64,000 nt of DNA from the NCBI GenBank assembly GCA_017472255.1, contig JAFUQU010000014.1:357845-421844 (forward strand), written 5' to 3'. Below the pieces are notes generated by a model. That model saw nothing but the letters and a program-made list of their open reading frames with translations. It did not search any database and had not been told where the DNA came from. The stretch is from Clostridia bacterium. GTDB lineage: Bacteria; Bacillota; Clostridia; Oscillospirales; CAG-272. The position numbers were made by a program, and so were the translations under genes. Numbering within the stretch: the first letter of the stretch is position 1; each line of letters opens with the position of its first letter. Positions 3,303-32,557 of this stretch are shown here, piece by piece.

Positions 3303-4538
3303 ATGACCGACCATTATGTTATTATCGGAAATTCGGCGGCCGCTGTGGGCTGCATCGAGGGCATCCGTGCCACGGATAAGCAGGGCAGGATTACGCTGAT
3401 TTCCGACGAACCGTATCATACCTATTCCCGCCCGCTGATCTCCTACCTGCTGTGGGGAAAGACCAGCGAGGAACGCATGAAATACCGCCCGGACGATTTT
3501 TATGAAAAGAATGGTGTCAGGACTTTGCTGGGACATCGTGCTCTGGCCATCGACAACGTGATGAAGCGCGTTACGCTGGACGATGGGGAGCAGATTCCCT
3601 ACGAGAAGCTGCTGGTGGCGACCGGCTCCAAGCCCTTTGTGCCGCCGATGAACGGTCTTGACCTTGTGACAAAGAAGTTCAGCTTCATGAAGCTGGATGA
3701 CGCCCACGCGCTGGCCGATGCGCTGACTGCCGATGCCCGGGTGCTGGTTATCGGCGCAGGTCTGATCGGTCTGAAATGCGTGGAGGGCATCAAGGATCGC
3801 TGCGGTCAGATTACGGTGGTAGACCTCGCGCCCCGTATTCTGCCCAGTATTCTGGATGAAAACGGCTCCGCTCTGGTGCAGAAATTCCTTGAGGGGAAGG
3901 GCATACGCTTTATCCTTTCGGACAGCGTTGACAGCTTTGAAGCCAACGCGGCCACGCTGAAAAGCGGCAGAAAGCTGGATTTCGACGTGCTGGTGCTGGC
4001 AGTGGGCGTCCGCCCGAACACCGAGCTGGTGTCGGCGGCAGGCGGCGAAGTGAATCGCGGCATCGTGACCAACCTGCGCTGCGAGACGACGCTGGACGAT
4101 GTGTATGCCGCCGGTGACTGTGCGCTTTCCCATGATATCACGCTGGATCAGGATCGCATTCTGGCGCTGCTGCCCAACGCTTATATGCAGGGTTACGCGG
4201 CCGGTGTGAACATGGCGGGCGGCGACGCGAAGTGGGATCGCGCCATGGCGATGAATGCCATCGGTTTCTTCGGTCTGCATATTATCACCGCCGGAAGCTA
4301 TACAGGCCATGTTTATGAAAAGAGCACCGAGGACAGCTACAAGAAGCTGTTCTATCAGGACAACAAATTAAAGGGTTTTATTTTGATCGGCGATGTGATG
4401 CGCGCCGGAATTTATACGTCGCTCATCCGTGAGGAGACGCCGCTTGATACGGTGGACTTTGAGCTGATCTGCGAAAAGCCGCAGCTGATGGCATTCACGC
4501 GGCATGAACGTGCGAAACAATTGAGCACGTCGCATTGA
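3303..4538 (+). CDS. FAD/NAD(P)-binding pyridine nucleotide-disulfide oxidoreductase (GltD-like electron donor subunit)
   Basis: N-terminal GNSAAAVG dinucleotide fold and a second Rossmann fold (VIGAGLIGLKC); operon context. Confidence 0.75.
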   Translation: MTDHYVIIGNSAAAVGCIEGIRATDKQGRITLISDEPYHTYSRPLISYLLWGKTSEERMKYRPDDFYEKNGVRTLLGHRALAIDNVMKRVTLDDGEQIPYEKLLVATGSKPFVPPMNGLDLVTKKFSFMKLDDAHALADALTADARVLVIGAGLIGLKCVEGIKDRCGQITVVDLAPRILPSILDENGSALVQKFLEGKGIRFILSDSVDSFEANAATLKSGRKLDFDVLVLAVGVRPNTELVSAAGGEVNRGIVTNLRCETTLDDVYAAGDCALSHDITLDQDRILALLPNAYMQGYAAGVNMAGGDAKWDRAMAMNAIGFFGLHIITAGSYTGHVYEKSTEDSYKKLFYQDNKLKGFILIGDVMRAGIYTSLIREETPLDTVDFELICEKPQLMAFTRHERAKQLSTSH

Positions 4539-28683: not shown

Positions 28684-28761
28684 AAACTCTTTACAACCGG
28701 GTTGGGGTATGGTATAATAGTATCATACCCCGATCGATTTTTATACAGGAGATATACAGCC

Positions 28762-30117
28762 ATGAACATACTGATTCTCAACGGCAGCCCCAAGGGACAG
28801 TACAGCATCACGCTCCAGACGGTGAATTACCTGATGCTTCTGCATCCCAAGCACAGGTGGGAGGTGCTGCACGTTGGACGCCGCATCAAATCGCTGGCGA
28901 AGGATTTCACCCCTGCGGTCGAAGCGGTGAAGCGGGCGGATCTGCTGCTGTTCGCCTATCCGGTTTACACCTTCCTCGCGCCCAGTCAGCTGCACCGCTT
29001 CATTGAACTGCTGAAAGCGGCGGGCGTTTCGGCGGAGGGCAAGTTTGCCACGCAGATCACCACCTCCAAGCATTTCTATGATGTGACCGCCCATCGATAC
29101 ATACAGGATAACTGTCAGGACATGGGAATGAAATTCATCCGCGGTCTGTCGGCGGATATGGATGATCTGCTCACCGATAAGGGTCAGGGCGAAGCGTCCG
29201 CTTTCTTTGATCATGTGCTGTGGAGCATGAAGCGGGATATTTACGAGTCTGCGCCCACTCCTCAGCCCGCCGGGGAACGTATTCCTGCCGTTGTGCCCCC
29301 GTCGGCGGAGAAAACAAAGGGCGATGTGGTCATTGTTACCGACTGCGCGCCCGAAGATGCCCAGCTTTCAGGGATGATCGAACGCTTCCGCGCTGTAATG
29401 CCCCTGAAAACCCGGGTGGTGAATCTGCGCGAATATCCCTTTGCGGGCGGATGTCTGGGCTGCTTCAACTGCGCGGTGTCCGGCGAGTGCGTGTATAAGG
29501 ATGGGTTTGATGAGTTCCTGCGGGGCAGCATCCAGACGGCGCAGGCTATCGTCTATGCCTTTACAATCCGCGATCATTCCATGGGCGCGCTGTTCAAACT
29601 CTACGACGACCGCCAGTTCTGCAACGGACACCGCACCGTCACCATGGATATGCCGGTGGGGTATCTGATCTCGGGCGATTATTCGCGGGAGTTCAACCTG
29701 CAAATGGTTGTCGAAGCTCGGGCGCAGGTGGGCGGCAACCATCTGGCGGGTGTGGCGACCGATGAGCAGAATACGGACGCTGCCGTCAACAATCTGGCGC
29801 GCAGCCTCTGCTACGCGCTGAAAAATAAATACACCCAGCCTCAGAATTTCTGGGGTGTGGGCGGCATGAAGATTTTCCGCGACCTGATCTGGGTGATGCA
29901 GGGCATGATGAAGGCGGATCACAAATTCTACAAGGAGCACGATCAATACGACTTTCCGCAGAAGCAGAAGGGAACCATCCGCAAGATGTATCTGGTGGGC
30001 GCGCTGCTGTCGGTTCCGGCGGTGAAAAAGAAGCTGGGCAACAAAATGAACGAGGGTATGCTGGCGCCCTACAAAAAGGTGCTGGACGCTGCGGAGAAAA
30101 AGCAGAATGAGCCTTGA
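28762..30117 (+). CDS. Flavodoxin-like NAD(P)H-dependent oxidoreductase with Cys-rich C-terminal domain
   Basis: N-terminal NADPH-dependent FMN reductase fold (ILILNGSPKGQYS); CLGCFNCAVSGEC motif in the middle. Confidence 0.6.
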   Translation: MNILILNGSPKGQYSITLQTVNYLMLLHPKHRWEVLHVGRRIKSLAKDFTPAVEAVKRADLLLFAYPVYTFLAPSQLHRFIELLKAAGVSAEGKFATQITTSKHFYDVTAHRYIQDNCQDMGMKFIRGLSADMDDLLTDKGQGEASAFFDHVLWSMKRDIYESAPTPQPAGERIPAVVPPSAEKTKGDVVIVTDCAPEDAQLSGMIERFRAVMPLKTRVVNLREYPFAGGCLGCFNCAVSGECVYKDGFDEFLRGSIQTAQAIVYAFTIRDHSMGALFKLYDDRQFCNGHRTVTMDMPVGYLISGDYSREFNLQMVVEARAQVGGNHLAGVATDEQNTDAAVNNLARSLCYALKNKYTQPQNFWGVGGMKIFRDLIWVMQGMMKADHKFYKEHDQYDFPQKQKGTIRKMYLVGALLSVPAVKKKLGNKMNEGMLAPYKKVLDAAEKKQNEP

Positions 30118-30142
30118 CAAATCCGCCGCCGTGTGATACAAT
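30114..30142 (+). promoter_or_regulatory. Promoter overlapping the stop codon of the preceding gene (TTGACA-17-TACAAT)
   Basis: TTGACA 30114-30119; TACAAT 30137-30142. Confidence 0.5.
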
Positions 30143-30159
30143 AATACAAACAAATACAT

Positions 30160-30237
30160 AGCCCCTGCCACCGGGTAGGGGATGAAAGCATCCGCGCACA
30201 TCGTTAGGTCTTTGAAGATGTGCGGCGGGTGCTTTTT
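30160..30237 (+). ncRNA. Candidate riboswitch-like leader (small hairpin + intrinsic terminator) upstream of a pnuC-like gene
   Basis: Hairpin cccct-gccaccgggt-agggg (30162-30180). Terminator ccgcgcacatc..gatgtgcggcgg then GTGCTTTTT (30192-30237). The gene starts at 30258. Confidence 0.4.
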
Positions 30238-30257
30238 GGCTGAAAGGGGATATTACC

Positions 30258-30938
30258 ATGCTGCAATCCATCCGTGATCTGACGCGCGGCGAGCGGCTGC
30301 TCTGGATTTGTTCCGCCGCCGCTGTAACCGCTTCCTTCCTGCTTTTCGGCAGGGAAGACTGGCTGACGCTCATTGGCTCGCTCATCGGCGTGACGGCGCT
30401 GATTTTTGTCGCCAGGGGCTATGTTCTGGGGCAGGTGCTGACCGTGGCGTTCAGCCTGTTTTACGGCGTGATTTCCTTTGGTCAGCGCTATTACGGCGAG
30501 ATGATCACCTACCTCGGCATGACCTCGCCCATTGCCATTCTGACGGTAATTTCATGGCTGCGGCATCCCTACGCGGGAACGCGGGAGGTGGAGGTGAAGC
30601 GTCTGTCCATACGGGGATGGCTGCTTCTTCTGTTGGCGGCGGGAGTGGTGACGTGGGGGTTCTACTACATCCTCGATTTCTTTGGCAACGCGAATATGCT
30701 GTTCAGCACCATATCGATTACCACCAGCTTTCTCGCCTCGGCGCTGACCCTGCTGCGCAGTCCATGGTACGCAGCGGCTTACGCTGCCAACGACCTTGTT
30801 TTGATCGTGCTGTGGATTATGGCATCGACCGGCGATACATCCTGCCTGCCCATGGTGGTTTGCTTTGCCGCATTCTTCTTCAACGATGTGTACGGCTTCA
30901 TCAGCTGGCGGCGGATGGCGGCAAGACAAAGGCGGTGA
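30258..30938 (+). CDS. PnuC-family nicotinamide riboside transporter (putative)
   Basis: 7-TM profile with Trp-rich loops resembling PnuC; 226 aa. Confidence 0.5.
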   Translation: MLQSIRDLTRGERLLWICSAAAVTASFLLFGREDWLTLIGSLIGVTALIFVARGYVLGQVLTVAFSLFYGVISFGQRYYGEMITYLGMTSPIAILTVISWLRHPYAGTREVEVKRLSIRGWLLLLLAAGVVTWGFYYILDFFGNANMLFSTISITTSFLASALTLLRSPWYAAAYAANDLVLIVLWIMASTGDTSCLPMVVCFAAFFFNDVYGFISWRRMAARQRR

Positions 30939-31445: not shown

Positions 31446-32557
31446 TGAAAGAGATTATCCTTGAAAACGAACGCGGCATCCTGATTAAAAACGGACGCTA
31501 CGCCGGGCTGCTGGAGCCGGGAAAATATCGCTTTTTCGGCGATGTTACCGTGCAGAAGCTGCCCGCCGCCGGTCAGATTCTGCCGTCCCAGTGTACGCTG
31601 GAGACTCTGCTGTCCGACCCGAAGGCCGCCGTTTTTGCCGAGCCGGTGACGGTGGAGGACGGACATCTGGCGCTCCACTTTGTTGACGGCGTCTTCCGCG
31701 ATGTGCTGCGTCCCGGACGCTACGCCTTCTGGAAGATCAGCGAATCCCACAGCTTCACGATCGTCGATACCACGGAGCCGGAGATTACCGGAATTCCCGC
31801 CGGTGTGCTTGTCCGGATGCCCAGCGATCTTTACCTGCGCGTCAACGTGTTTGAATACCAGAAAGCCCGGCTGTACTACGATAACAGGCTTGTGCGGATT
31901 CTGGACGGCGGCGTTTACTATTTCTGGCGGGGCGGCGTGGATGTGGCGGCGGACATCGTGGACACCCGCGTAACCCGCATGACTGTCACCGGGCAGGAAC
32001 TGCTCACCGCCGATAAGGTAGCGCTGCGCGTGACCTTTGTCTGCAATTACCGCATCACCGATTGCGTGAAGGTGCTTACTGAAATCGATGATTTCCGGGA
32101 GCAGATTCATGTCACCGCTCAGCTGGCGCTGCGCGATTACATCGGGCGCCGCAGCCTGGACGATATTCTTGAGAATAAGGAGGAGCTTTCGGCTTATGTG
32201 GGCGGGAAGCTGTCCGAGAAAGCGCCGTCGCTTTACGTGGAAATCAGCGACGCCGGCGTGCGTGACATCATTCTTCCCGGTGAAATCCGCAGCATCATGA
32301 ACACTGTGCTGGTGGCCGAGAAGAAGGCGCAGGCCAACGTGATCACCCGCCGCGAGGAGGTGGCGTCCACCCGCTCCCTGCTGAACACCGCCAAGCTGAT
32401 GGATGAAAACAAGACCCTCTACCGTCTCAAGGAGATGGAGTACATCGAAAAGCTCTGCGAAAAGGTGGGCAACATCAATCTGAGCGGGCAGGGCGATATT
32501 CTGTCCCAGCTGGCGTCGGTGATGGGCTCGCAGAAGAAGCAGGATGATTGGATATAA
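31446..32557 (+). CDS. SPFH/band-7 (stomatin/prohibitin-like) domain protein
   Basis: C-terminal SPFH core plus coiled-coil (IRSIMNTVLVAEKKAQANVITRREEVASTRSL); RBS AAAGGAGG before ATG 31446; the upstream track ORF extension is leader. Confidence 0.65.

Follow-up and report, generated by a model that had tools for sequence, protein, structure and literature searches.

The gene for a PnuC-like membrane protein described here is preceded by a leader with a promoter, a hairpin and a terminator, and the locus raises the question of what, if anything, this leader senses. The initial annotation took it for a cis-regulator of the transporter gene, either an NAD+-responsive riboswitch (pnuC motif/NAD+-II) or a new or divergent element. 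Positions given below are those of the window, that is, the whole 64,000-nucleotide stretch of DNA that was analysed, and all features lie on the + strand.

Promoter and layout of the leader

A sigma-70-type promoter occupies positions 30114–30142 and is characterized by a −35 hexamer TTGACA (30114–30119), a 17-nt spacer and a TG-extended −10 hexamer TACAAT (30137–30142). It possesses 11 of 12 consensus matches in addition to the TG ahead of the −10 box and, as had been noticed initially, overlaps the end of the preceding gene, the −35 box covering the TGA stop codon (30115–30117) of the ORF at 28702–30117. Transcription presumably starts near position 30149. Similar promoters accompany related leaders: when the 68 related loci and the window were taken together, 49 of these 69 leaders had a sigma-70-like site no more than 80 nt upstream of the first hairpin (P1), versus 4 in control windows located 400–480 nt upstream. 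The median distance from the −10 box to P1 in the related leaders is 19 nt.

P1 (CCCCUGCC-ACCG-GGUAGGGG) spans 30162–30181 and corresponds to the short GC hairpin originally placed at 30162–30180. Its loop, ACCG, is found at 30170–30173, and its conserved core consists of CUGCC (30165–30169) paired with GGUAG (30174–30178), which is extended here by CCC/GGG. The intrinsic terminator, first delimited as 30192–30237, is indeed present and ends as proposed, but it is longer: it spans 30184–30237, with a 5′ arm at 30184–30202, a 3′ arm at 30217–30236 in which G30224 is bulged, and a U5 tract at 30233–30237. The upper part of its stem (30195–30202/30217–30224) represents the aptamer portion and carries a 14-nt loop, GUUAGGUCUUUGAA (30203–30216). 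The ribosome binding site AAAGGGGA (30243–30250) follows downstream of the terminator, 7 nt ahead of the ATG at 30258; it lies outside the switch and outside every conserved pairing. The gene itself (30258–30938) encodes a 226-aa PnuC-family (PF04973) membrane protein, a putative guanidine transporter, so that this part of the initial description was also accurate. The 123-nt leader exhibits a minimum free energy of −49.3 kcal/mol (z = −4.43), and none of 200 shuffled sequences folds as well.

Conservation and covariation

The motif is found directly upstream in 68 of 80 orthologous PnuC loci (51–64% protein identity) from diverse Clostridia MAGs. In these 68 loci it combines the P1 loop CC-ACCG-GG with a 14-nt terminator loop, GUUAGGUCUUWGAA; the window sequence at 30165–30178 (CUGCC-ACCG-GGUAG) is their consensus. 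Alignment of pnuC upstream regions, which had been suggested as a check, reveals strong covariation in both stems, and covariation is also seen in a loop–loop pseudoknot. RNAalifold gave compensatory changes at 16 of 19 pairs. For the structure named here 97% of cells are paired and 18 of 24 pairs are compensatory, a result reached by none of 500 shuffles, while all slid controls collapse. Compensatory changes occur at four of the five pairs of the P1 core (99.7% of cells paired), at six of eight pairs in the lower terminator helix and at seven of eight in the upper one.

The pseudoknot is a kissing interaction whose 5′ half lies at 30170–30172 (A30170:U30209, C30171:G30208 and C30172:G30207). 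Among about 170 copies there are 144 with ACC/GGU, 22 with GCC/GGC and one wobble combination (GCC/GGU), with neither ACC/GGC nor any mismatched copy. Alignment position 12:87 is accordingly A:U in 144 copies, G:C in 22 and G·U in one, and A/C is never found. Hardly any variation is seen in the terminator loop, either in the 133 PnuC-associated copies or in about 40 others. Pairing inside this loop (UUAG/UUGA), as drawn by RNAfold, was rejected, since copies with A at position 91 do not conserve it. Another candidate pair, 83:90 (U·U replaced by C-G), was seen in two related sequences only, L036 and L076.

A metagenome scan placed the motif ahead of genes for MatE, SMR (SugE), Pyridox_ox_2 (PNPOx, NimA-like), B3_4, EamA and GNAT proteins. 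These loci were retrieved by a pattern drawn from the PnuC-associated consensus, so identity at the fixed positions is partly built in; independent evidence comes solely from the free positions and from the genes that follow.

It could be argued that nothing is sensed at all, the hairpin being the terminator of the upstream flavodoxin-like gene next to chance promoter hexamers, or else a protein-bound attenuator. The terminator does lie 67 nt past the upstream stop codon and could end that transcript too, and Salvail et al. (bioRxiv 10.1101/2020.10.21.349134) point out that motifs of this kind readily pass for ordinary terminators. Nevertheless, the motif tracks the downstream gene, in 68 of 80 PnuC loci and in six unrelated gene families, the near-invariance of its terminator loop is never shown by ordinary terminators, the loop–loop pair covaries, promoters are enriched just upstream of P1, and the in vitro response of homologues to guanidine requires no protein; we regard this explanation as very improbable. 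Since the motif proved to be conserved and the terminator is not merely that of the upstream gene, the riboswitch reading stands. The element is thus what had been supposed in general terms, a conserved cis-regulator of the PnuC gene with its own promoter and a terminator platform.

Assignment to the guanidine-IV class

A covariance model (R1) was constructed from two validated aptamers, those of L. lactis (Lla) and R. timonensis (Rti), and 25 non-PnuC examples; it includes zero PnuC-associated sequences. The underlying alignment was made using MAFFT, with the L. lactis sequence trimmed at its 5′ end. R1 matches window positions 30161–30238 over its full length (1–82) with 66.3 bits (E = 1.5e-15). 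The second-best match in the window (31979–32039; 9.8 bits, E = 1.4) was taken as chance, since it sits within an SPFH-domain ORF and is without the terminator loop.

Direct comparison with the validated RNAs is congruent with this result. The window reads CUGCCACCGGGUAG...AUCGUUAGGUCUUUGAAGAU versus CUGCCGCCGGGUAG...AUCGUUAGGCCAUAGAAGAU in 92 Rti. The P1 hairpins are CUCC-ACCG-GGAG in 95 Lla and CUGCC-GCCG-GGUAG in 92 Rti, the CC-ACCG-GG loop of the window being identical to that of L. lactis; the terminator loop GUUAGGUCUUUGAA was compared with GUUAGGCCAUAGAA (Rti) and AGUAGGUCUGAGAA (Lla). The L. lactis substitutions G66C, U67A and G72C each abolish guanidine-dependent modulation (PMC7736828; bioRxiv 10.1101/2020.10.21.349134), and the equivalent residues, G30208, U30209 and G30214, are all present in the window. 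A loop–loop pseudoknot has been described for the class ("P2" in Salvail et al., bioRxiv 10.1101/2020.10.21.349134), and the validated R. timonensis aptamer has the G:C version of the variable pair.

The genes under control agree as well. Table S4 of Lenkeit et al. (2020; PMC7736828) gives guanidine-IV gene shares of 31% for SugE, 25.2% for PnuC, 22.6% for MATE and 10.5% for NimA, to which Salvail et al. (bioRxiv 10.1101/2020.10.21.349134) add EmrE-like and B3/B4 genes; the families found downstream in the metagenomes are this published set.

Rfam did not reveal the relationship. A cmscan of the whole 64 kb window returned no match at the gathering score, and a search of 30050–30330 at E ≤ 10 yielded noise only (Ref64, Mahella-1, isrJ and mir-210, all at 13–16 bits). 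Rfam was equally silent on SugE- and MATE-associated copies of the motif, and its null result is therefore uninformative about the membership of this leader; it appears that Rfam release 15, the copy used, has no model that detects the guanidine-IV class. A new motif, as the null result had suggested, was dropped as an interpretation when the metagenome scan put MatE and SMR genes downstream. Three candidates considered by eye, preQ1-I, the ACGR loops of guanidine-II and the terminator-embedded aptamer of HMP-PP, were ruled out by sequence and by the absence of Rfam matches.

The class identity of the leader is evident in sequence and structure, in the covariation of both stems and the pseudoknot, and in the common gene set. 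Judged from its sequence, we are highly confident that the leader represents a typical guanidine-IV (GGAM-1/mepA motif) riboswitch. It belongs to a known class whose association with PnuC has already been published, with PnuC-like genes making up about a quarter of the members, and is neither a new or divergent regulator nor an NAD+ sensor. The locus originates from 2020 metagenome samples (SAMN15829959, SRR12529333), and it may be absent from the published guanidine-IV alignments.

Proposed switch mechanism

Guanidine binding, the ON direction and the linker-length mechanism are inferred from L. lactis sugE, R. timonensis emrE and C. botulinum mepA. By analogy with these, the riboswitch would act within the 5′ UTR of the PnuC-like gene, a monocistronic unit with its own promoter, and its aptamer would be split between the P1 loop (CC-ACCG-GG) and the 14-nt loop that caps the terminator hairpin. 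In the absence of guanidine the full 19-bp terminator is expected to form, and transcription would end at the U tract (30233–30237). Guanidinium binding to the nascent RNA would stabilize the 3-bp pseudoknot between A30170–C30172 and G30207–U30209. This loop contact would occupy about 7–8 nt or more of single-stranded linker and so block the basal pairs of the terminator, which cannot zip because the contact demands that the linker be single-stranded. Polymerase would then read into the PnuC-like gene, making the element a transcriptional genetic ON switch. The transporter would most likely be a guanidinium exporter or serve guanidine handling in some other way.

The geometry of the leader is compatible with such a switch. 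With the full terminator formed, 2 nt (30182–30183) lie between the extended P1 and the base of the terminator in the MFE structure, whereas 13–16 nt are free between P1 and the stem when only the upper 8 bp are formed. The published model needs a linker of at least 7–8 single-stranded nt for loop contact; two are too few, and aptamer and full terminator are hence mutually exclusive. The calculated energies are −47.1 kcal/mol for the full terminator state versus −28.4 for P1 and the upper stem alone.

The linker can also form a 5-bp hairpin of its own at 30180–30193 (GGAUG 30180–30184 with CAUCC 30189–30193), which takes up the 5′ base of the terminator stem. An equivalent helix (A2 columns 42–46 with 61–65) occurs in most PnuC-associated leaders and is compensatory in five of six tested pairs, among them 42:65, in 10 sequences, and 46:61, in 5. 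It may perhaps function as a conventional anti-terminator, in addition to the published linker-length mechanism.

Validated homologues have KD values of 190–210 µM (210 µM for the A:U form of L. lactis, 190 µM for the G:C form of R. timonensis), an 80-fold reporter induction and an EC50 of about 69 µM, and in validated members of the class, which are ON switches, the ligand induces expression. For a vitamin importer, repression by its own ligand would be expected. The repression implied by the initial annotation is the reverse of how validated members of the class behave.

The PnuC-like transporter and the NAD+ hypothesis

The 226-aa product matches PF04973 with 107 bits (1.4e-30) and structure 4QTN at E = 2.8e-20. 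It scores 66.6 bits against TIGR01528 (cut-off 42.45) and so passes the NCBIfam equivalog "nicotinamide riboside transporter PnuC," which nominally favours nicotinamide riboside as the substrate. In characterized Pnu transporters (PnuC for nicotinamide riboside, PnuT for thiamine) the ligand-binding motif is WxxW(x)3[D/N] in TM6. This motif is absent from the window protein, in which AAAYAAND aligns with WALWIVVN of 4QTN (pairwise HMMER alignment only). No variation occurs at A172, Y175, N178 or D179 among 21 clade members.

These data bear on the idea that the leader senses NAD+, NMN or nicotinamide riboside, as a divergent NAD+-II/pnuC motif or a new NAD+ class, and represses a nicotinamide riboside importer. 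In its favour the protein belongs to PF04973 and exceeds the TIGR01528 cut-off, and some pnuC genes are controlled by NAD+-II. But the cmscan with the nadA and pnuC motif models, which the initial annotation had recommended, produced no match to NAD+-I or NAD+-II, either in the window at the gathering score or in 30050–30330 even at E ≤ 10. Furthermore, the pnuC motif occurs in Streptococcus alone and employs a pseudoknot at the RBS, not a terminator (PMC7749635), the present motif also precedes SugE, MatE, NimA-like, B3/4 and GNAT genes, which have no NAD+ link, and the protein is without the ligand motif of characterized Pnu transporters. An NAD+-type ligand is consequently given next to no credence. 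The literature searched under NAD-type riboswitch names contained nothing relevant on a PnuC-linked Clostridia motif.

The substrate of the PnuC-like protein is a matter of speculation, but the protein probably transports guanidine and is probably not an importer of nicotinamide riboside. Lenkeit et al. (2020; PMC7736828) have suggested that guanidine-IV-controlled genes of the PnuC and MATE classes represent new guanidine exporters; no experimental test of this proposal for PnuC-like proteins was found in the searchable literature. We lean slightly towards the view that the PnuC-like clade under guanidine-IV control represents a separate guanidinium transporter family with a Pnu/SWEET-like fold, in which AxxYxxND replaces WxxW(x)3[D/N]. 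If this were true, the annotation "nicotinamide mononucleotide transporter" would be wrong on thousands of gut Clostridia genes.

The main value of these findings concerns annotation, and the understanding of riboswitches is unchanged. The gene name "PnuC" misled towards NAD+, while the RNA ahead of the gene indicates guanidine. It has been argued in print that the riboswitch class predicts the substrate of a Pnu protein, and the guanidine-IV/PnuC case agrees. Because the Rfam copy used misses guanidine-IV, a routine cmscan overlooks abundant copies, each of which resembles an orphan candidate riboswitch. The element marks this gut Clostridia MAG as having an inducible guanidine response and points to a candidate transporter family.

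Comparison with known systems

The HMP-PP riboswitch (thiS motif; Atilho et al. 2019) is comparable in that some of its aptamer nucleotides sit within an intrinsic terminator hairpin, so that the motif is readily overlooked as a plain terminator; it differs in sequence, ligand and gene set and has no Rfam match in the window. NAD+-II (pnuC motif; Panchapakesan et al. 2021, PMC7749635) likewise lies upstream of a pnuC-annotated gene and forms a pseudoknot, but its sequence and fold are unrelated, and it is a translational OFF switch known from Streptococcus only, with the pseudoknot over the RBS. Guanidine-II (mini-ykkC) shares with guanidine-IV the ligand, the ON direction and two hairpins whose loops kiss on binding, whereas it is built on two ACGR tetraloops and regulates translation; according to Lenkeit et al., its binding core bears no meaningful resemblance to that of guanidine-IV.

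A close variant of the class is Gd4v (Lenkeit et al. 2022, PMC9788692; ligand unknown). It has the P1 loop CCACCGGG, a pseudoknot and, as its expression platform, a terminator with UAGGU in the loop, and is also enriched in gut metagenomes. It is set apart by two features. In D1 a binding-critical G is replaced and is never G (95 Csp has UUACAAG, thus CAAG versus GAAG in the window); the window keeps G at 30207, 30208 and 30214, the last of which probably corresponds to D1, going by the text of the Gd4v paper. D2 is an extra hairpin in the terminator loop (95 Csp: CGGCGCGCUCUGCGCG), where the window has 14 unpaired nt and no inserted helix. Gd4v mostly precedes a PRK07324 transaminase gene, and sugE never follows it.

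Gd4v demonstrates that the fold can switch ligand, and the leader might accordingly be a specificity variant, either Gd4v or a PnuC-specific subclass, that senses not free guanidine but, for example, a nicotinamide-related metabolite or guanidino compound carried by the PnuC-like protein. The RNAs tested in the guanidine-IV literature precede sugE, emrE and mepA, no PnuC-associated representative was found among them in the papers examined, and 128 of 133 PnuC-associated copies have the A:U pseudoknot pair, SMR-associated ones being mostly G:C (5 of 7). Against this, both strict discriminators favour guanidine-IV, both window loops agree in every letter with copies found ahead of SMR/SugE, MatE and GNAT genes, the A:U and G:C forms bind guanidine with similar KD, and the PRK07324 transaminase, the signature of Gd4v, is not among the downstream genes. 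A change of ligand is accordingly considered unlikely, and guanidine-IV proper remains the preferred assignment.

Differences from guanidine-IV itself (PMC7736828; bioRxiv 10.1101/2020.10.21.349134) are not substantial: P1 of the window is longer by three G-C pairs, and the linker, single-stranded in the published descriptions, is able to form the 5-bp hairpin with the 5′ base of the terminator. In all other respects the two correspond, in the P1 loop CC-RCCG-GG, the terminator loop GUUAGGYCUUWGAA, the covarying pseudoknot, the short linker, the terminator platform with its U tract, the Firmicutes/Clostridia hosts and the PnuC-like gene downstream.

Locus architecture

The leader stands before a gene (30258-30938, + strand) encoding a PnuC-like protein of 226 aa (PF04973, 1.4e-30; TIGR01528, 66.6 bits). 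As the initial annotation had it, a TTGACA-17-TACAAT promoter (30114-30142, + strand; 11/12 positions match, with a TG extension) overlaps the preceding gene, its -35 element sharing bases with the TGA stop codon of the ORF at 28702-30117. The short GC-rich hairpin, here called P1, is likewise present (8 bp; CCCCUGCC-ACCG-GGUAGGGG, 30162-30181). It is followed by the long terminator hairpin, ending in U5 (30233-30237), which is larger than the 30192-30237 first assigned to it: the 5′ arm covers 30184-30202 and the 3′ arm 30217-30236. The RBS (30243-30250) and the ATG at 30258 complete the arrangement originally described. The leader has a folding energy of -49.3 kcal/mol (z = -4.43), and 0/200 dinucleotide shuffles folded equally well.

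The preceding gene specifies a flavodoxin-like/FMN-reductase-domain protein and the following gene an SPFH/Band 7 protein; the PnuC-like gene therefore stands alone. In the upstream protein (28702-30117, + strand; 471 aa) the flavodoxin-like/FMN-reductase domain is N-terminal (residues 21-122), and the long C-terminal part matches nothing in Pfam or NCBIfam.

Conservation and covariation

Thousands of proteins are related to the PnuC-like protein, and the closest that are not identical to it share 67% identity. Twenty-one of these relatives were aligned (A1), and with this alignment 80 loci were retrieved from species-representative genomes, every one a Clostridia-type MAG, at protein identities of 51-64%. 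At 68 of the 80 the same motif is found upstream of the start codon, at a distance of a few tens of bases (maximum ~110). It consists of CUGCC-ACCG-GGUAG, a variable linker, a long hairpin and a U tract, and the tip of the terminator hairpin is almost invariant (AUC-GUUAGGUCUUWGAA-GAU). RNAalifold analysis of the 68 aligned leaders (A2) predicted P1 as well as the terminator; 16/19 pairs show compensatory changes, which is the covariation that the initial annotation had proposed to look for upstream of pnuC genes. Pair counts on the named structure gave 97% of cells paired and 18/24 pairs compensatory, values reached by 0/500 shuffles; sliding the partners by 1-3 columns reduced pairing to 29-44%. 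In 49/69 leaders a promoter-like site occurs in the 80 nt preceding P1, versus 4 in control windows, and the distance from the -10 element to P1 has a median of 19 nt over the leaders and is 22 nt in the window. The leader could have been merely the terminator of the upstream gene; its conservation, its covariation and the promoter-like sites upstream of P1 rule this out and reveal a conserved structured 5′ UTR element, in keeping with the proposed cis-regulator whose terminator acts on the PnuC-like gene.

Eleven of the 80 loci carry clade orthologues (51-62% identity) with no recognizable motif upstream (L003, L018, L020, L023, L040, L045, L051, L054, L055, L060 and L074), several of which directly follow another gene or a tRNA; at L027 the upstream sequence is too short to judge. 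Locus L032 possesses an orphan extra P1 5′ region (AUUGAUCUGCCACCGGGG, 3800-3817) some 75 nt upstream of a complete riboswitch that starts with the identical AUUGAUCUGCCACCGGG. This looks like the remnant of a local duplication.

Assignment to the guanidine-IV class

The initial annotation suspected an NAD+ riboswitch (pnuC motif, NAD+-II) and suggested cmscan with Rfam models. Neither this motif, which is described as restricted to Streptococcus and which acts through an RBS pseudoknot, nor the nadA motif (NAD+-I) was matched, and both are rejected: Rfam release 15 gave zero matches at the gathering score over the whole 64 kb window and, at E<=10, only noise (13-16 bits) in the leader. Ten loci at which the motif precedes SMR or MatE genes (L082, L083, L088, L111, L124, L136, L165, L168, L177 and L195) also matched nothing in this release; the silence of Rfam is therefore uninformative about membership of the leader. 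The copy of release 15 used appears to hold no model able to detect guanidine-IV, so cmscan-based annotation will overlook this abundant, validated class.

The guanidine-IV riboswitch (GGAM-1) of Lenkeit et al. 2020 comprises two hairpins and a pseudoknot, the 3′ hairpin being a Rho-independent terminator (PMC7736828). Its 2,882 examples are mostly from Firmicutes, and the downstream genes (Table S4) encode SugE (31%), PnuC-like (25.2%), MATE (22.6%) and NimA (10.5%) proteins (PMC7736828). The mepA motif of Salvail et al. 2020 is the same RNA, to which EmrE-like and B3/B4 genes were added (bioRxiv 10.1101/2020.10.21.349134). Validated constructs from L. lactis (95 Lla, ...ACUCCACCGGGAGU...UUUCAGUAGGUCUGAGAAGAAA...) and R. 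timonensis (92 Rti, ...CUGCCGCCGGGUAG...CUAUCGUUAGGCCAUAGAAGAUAG...) are given in the PMC7736828 supplement; the window counterpart is CUGCCACCGGGUAG...ACAUCGUUAGGUCUUUGAAGAUGU. In the L. lactis RNA each of the mutations G66C, U67A and G72C abolished guanidine-dependent modulation (PMC7736828), and the corresponding G30208, U30209 and G30214 are all retained in the window.

A covariance model (R1, from seed alignment A5) combined the two validated sequences with 25 copies found in metagenomes before MatE, SMR, PNPOx, B3/4 and GNAT genes, and included zero PnuC-associated sequences. Its search of the window on both strands gave one full-length match, at 30161-30238 (66.3 bits, E=1.5e-15). The runner-up (31979-32039, + strand; 9.8 bits, E=1.4) lies within the SPFH/Band 7 ORF, has a P1-like CUGUC-ACCG-GGCAG and lacks the terminator loop; we regard it as a chance match, not a second riboswitch. 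The window loops CCACCGGG and CGUUAGGUCUUUGAA equal, letter for letter, those of copies before SMR, MatE and GNAT genes, an identity partly built in by a metagenome search pattern that fixed many loop positions; the independent evidence from these loci is their downstream genes and free positions. Judged by sequence and structure, the window leader is an ordinary member of the published, experimentally validated guanidine-IV class. What stands of the initial annotation is a riboswitch acting by a terminator on a PnuC-like gene; the NAD+ ligand, the regulatory direction and the novelty do not. With PnuC-like genes making up a quarter of the published downstream genes, this is no new or divergent cis-regulator, and the link of guanidine-IV to such genes is itself previously published.

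Genes downstream of the motif

A scan of metagenome contigs with one pattern, in which the pseudoknot positions were left free, returned 120 loci, approximately three quarters of them upstream of PnuC-like genes and the others upstream of unrelated genes. Pfam analysis of representatives assigned the latter to MatE (~440 aa, 15 loci), Small Multidrug Resistance of the SugE/EmrE type (~105 aa, 7 loci), Pyridox_ox_2, NimA-like (~166 aa, 6 loci), B3/4 domain (~240 aa, 3 loci), EamA-like (141 aa, 2 loci) and GNAT acetyltransferase (152-182 aa, 2 loci). A single RNA before several non-homologous genes is a hallmark of riboswitches, and the MatE, SMR, NimA-like, B3/4, EamA and GNAT set is that of guanidine.

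Locus L159 carries paired guanidine-IV riboswitches on the - strand (2703-2758 and 3314-3369, ~600 nt spacing), switch 1 upstream of a 166-aa PNPOx/NimA-like gene and switch 2 upstream of the next gene, which is PnuC-like. This tandem, with one switch per gene, recurs in L194 and L163. Three further loci (L131:7149-7247, +; L193:4402-4510, -; L136:8899-8991, +), which precede EamA-like (141 aa) genes and one SMR gene, retain the conserved loops, but a U-tract terminator is not obvious in them. Their second hairpin has its 3′ arm near the RBS and start codon (in L131, GAUGGAC then GUCCAUCAUG), which suggests that a minority of members use a translational, not transcriptional, expression platform.

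Pseudoknot, linker and mechanism

In the rare variant L042 the P1 loop A is replaced by G together with a U to C change in the terminator loop, from which we propose pairing of ACC (P1 loop) with GGU (terminator loop). Among all copies collected there are 144 ACC/GGU and 22 GCC/GGC combinations; the exceptions are one each of GCC/GGU (wobble), AUC/GGU (wobble) and AAC/GGU, and A/C occurs zero times at the covarying pair. The validated R. timonensis RNA has the G:C pair deduced here from covariation (PMC7736828 supplement). Grouping L001-L200 by downstream gene class gives A:U in 128/133 PnuC-associated copies, and G:C in 5/7 SMR-, 7/14 MatE- and 3/3 B3/4-associated copies. Since both forms bind guanidine in vitro, this bias is probably a matter of phylogeny or GC content, not of specificity.

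Guanidine-IV is a transcriptional ON switch, guanidine causing read-through in vitro and inducing a reporter 80-fold; the C. botulinum RNA has an EC50 of about 69 uM. By homology the window leader would be a guanidine-induced ON switch too, the decision falling on the nascent transcript. The aptamer is split over two loops, and their contact requires at least ~7-8 single-stranded linker nt, so that the state with bound ligand and a fully zipped terminator would be mutually exclusive. The predicted geometry of the window fits this linker-length model: the full terminator state (-47.1 kcal/mol) leaves a gap of only 2 nt between extended P1 and terminator, and the upper 8 bp alone (-28.4 kcal/mol) leave 13-16 nt free.

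The published model takes the linker as single-stranded. The linker and the 5′ base of the terminator can pair as a hairpin of 5-6 bp (A2 columns 41-46 with 61-66) in the L. lactis RNA and in most leaders associated with PnuC, a hairpin that we did not find discussed in the papers searched. It reads GGAUG (30180-30184)/CAUCC (30189-30193) in the window, GAAUGC/GCAUUC in most PnuC-associated copies and AAUCGU/ACGAUU in the validated L. lactis RNA. One pair of the linker hairpin shows compensatory changes in 10 sequences and another in 5; such changes preserve both alternative helices (linker hairpin and terminator), and the linker hairpin may be a conventional anti-terminator.

The PnuC-like transporter

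The PnuC-like protein can be aligned to the solved nicotinamide riboside transporter 4QTN (E=2.8e-20), but the Pnu family ligand motif, WxxW(x)3[D/N], is absent: in the pairwise alignment, AAAYAAND lies opposite WALWIVVN of 4QTN. Within this region (residues ~167-179, RSPWYAAAYAAND) A172, Y175, N178 and D179 are invariant over the 21 clade members of A1, and the altered motif is consistent with a changed substrate. The protein yet exceeds the equivalog cut-off of NCBIfam "nicotinamide riboside transporter PnuC," so the name automatically given to the clade is probably wrong. In the literature searched, no experiment was found that tests these proteins as guanidine transporters.

Comparison with Gd4v

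A close variant of guanidine-IV with unknown ligand, Gd4v (Lenkeit et al. 2022; PMC9788692), is located mostly before a transaminase gene and never before sugE (PMC9788692). Two features strictly separate it from guanidine-IV; one, D1, is a binding-critical G, never G in Gd4v (PMC9788692), which from the text of that paper we take to be the G of GAAG. Gd4v construct 95 Csp (...CCCGUAGGUA[CGGCGCGCUCUGCGCG]UUACAAGGGAG) has the other feature, D2, a hairpin inserted in the terminator loop, and C in place of this G. The window leader, in contrast, keeps GAAG and has no inserted hairpin, which places it with the guanidine-IV type.
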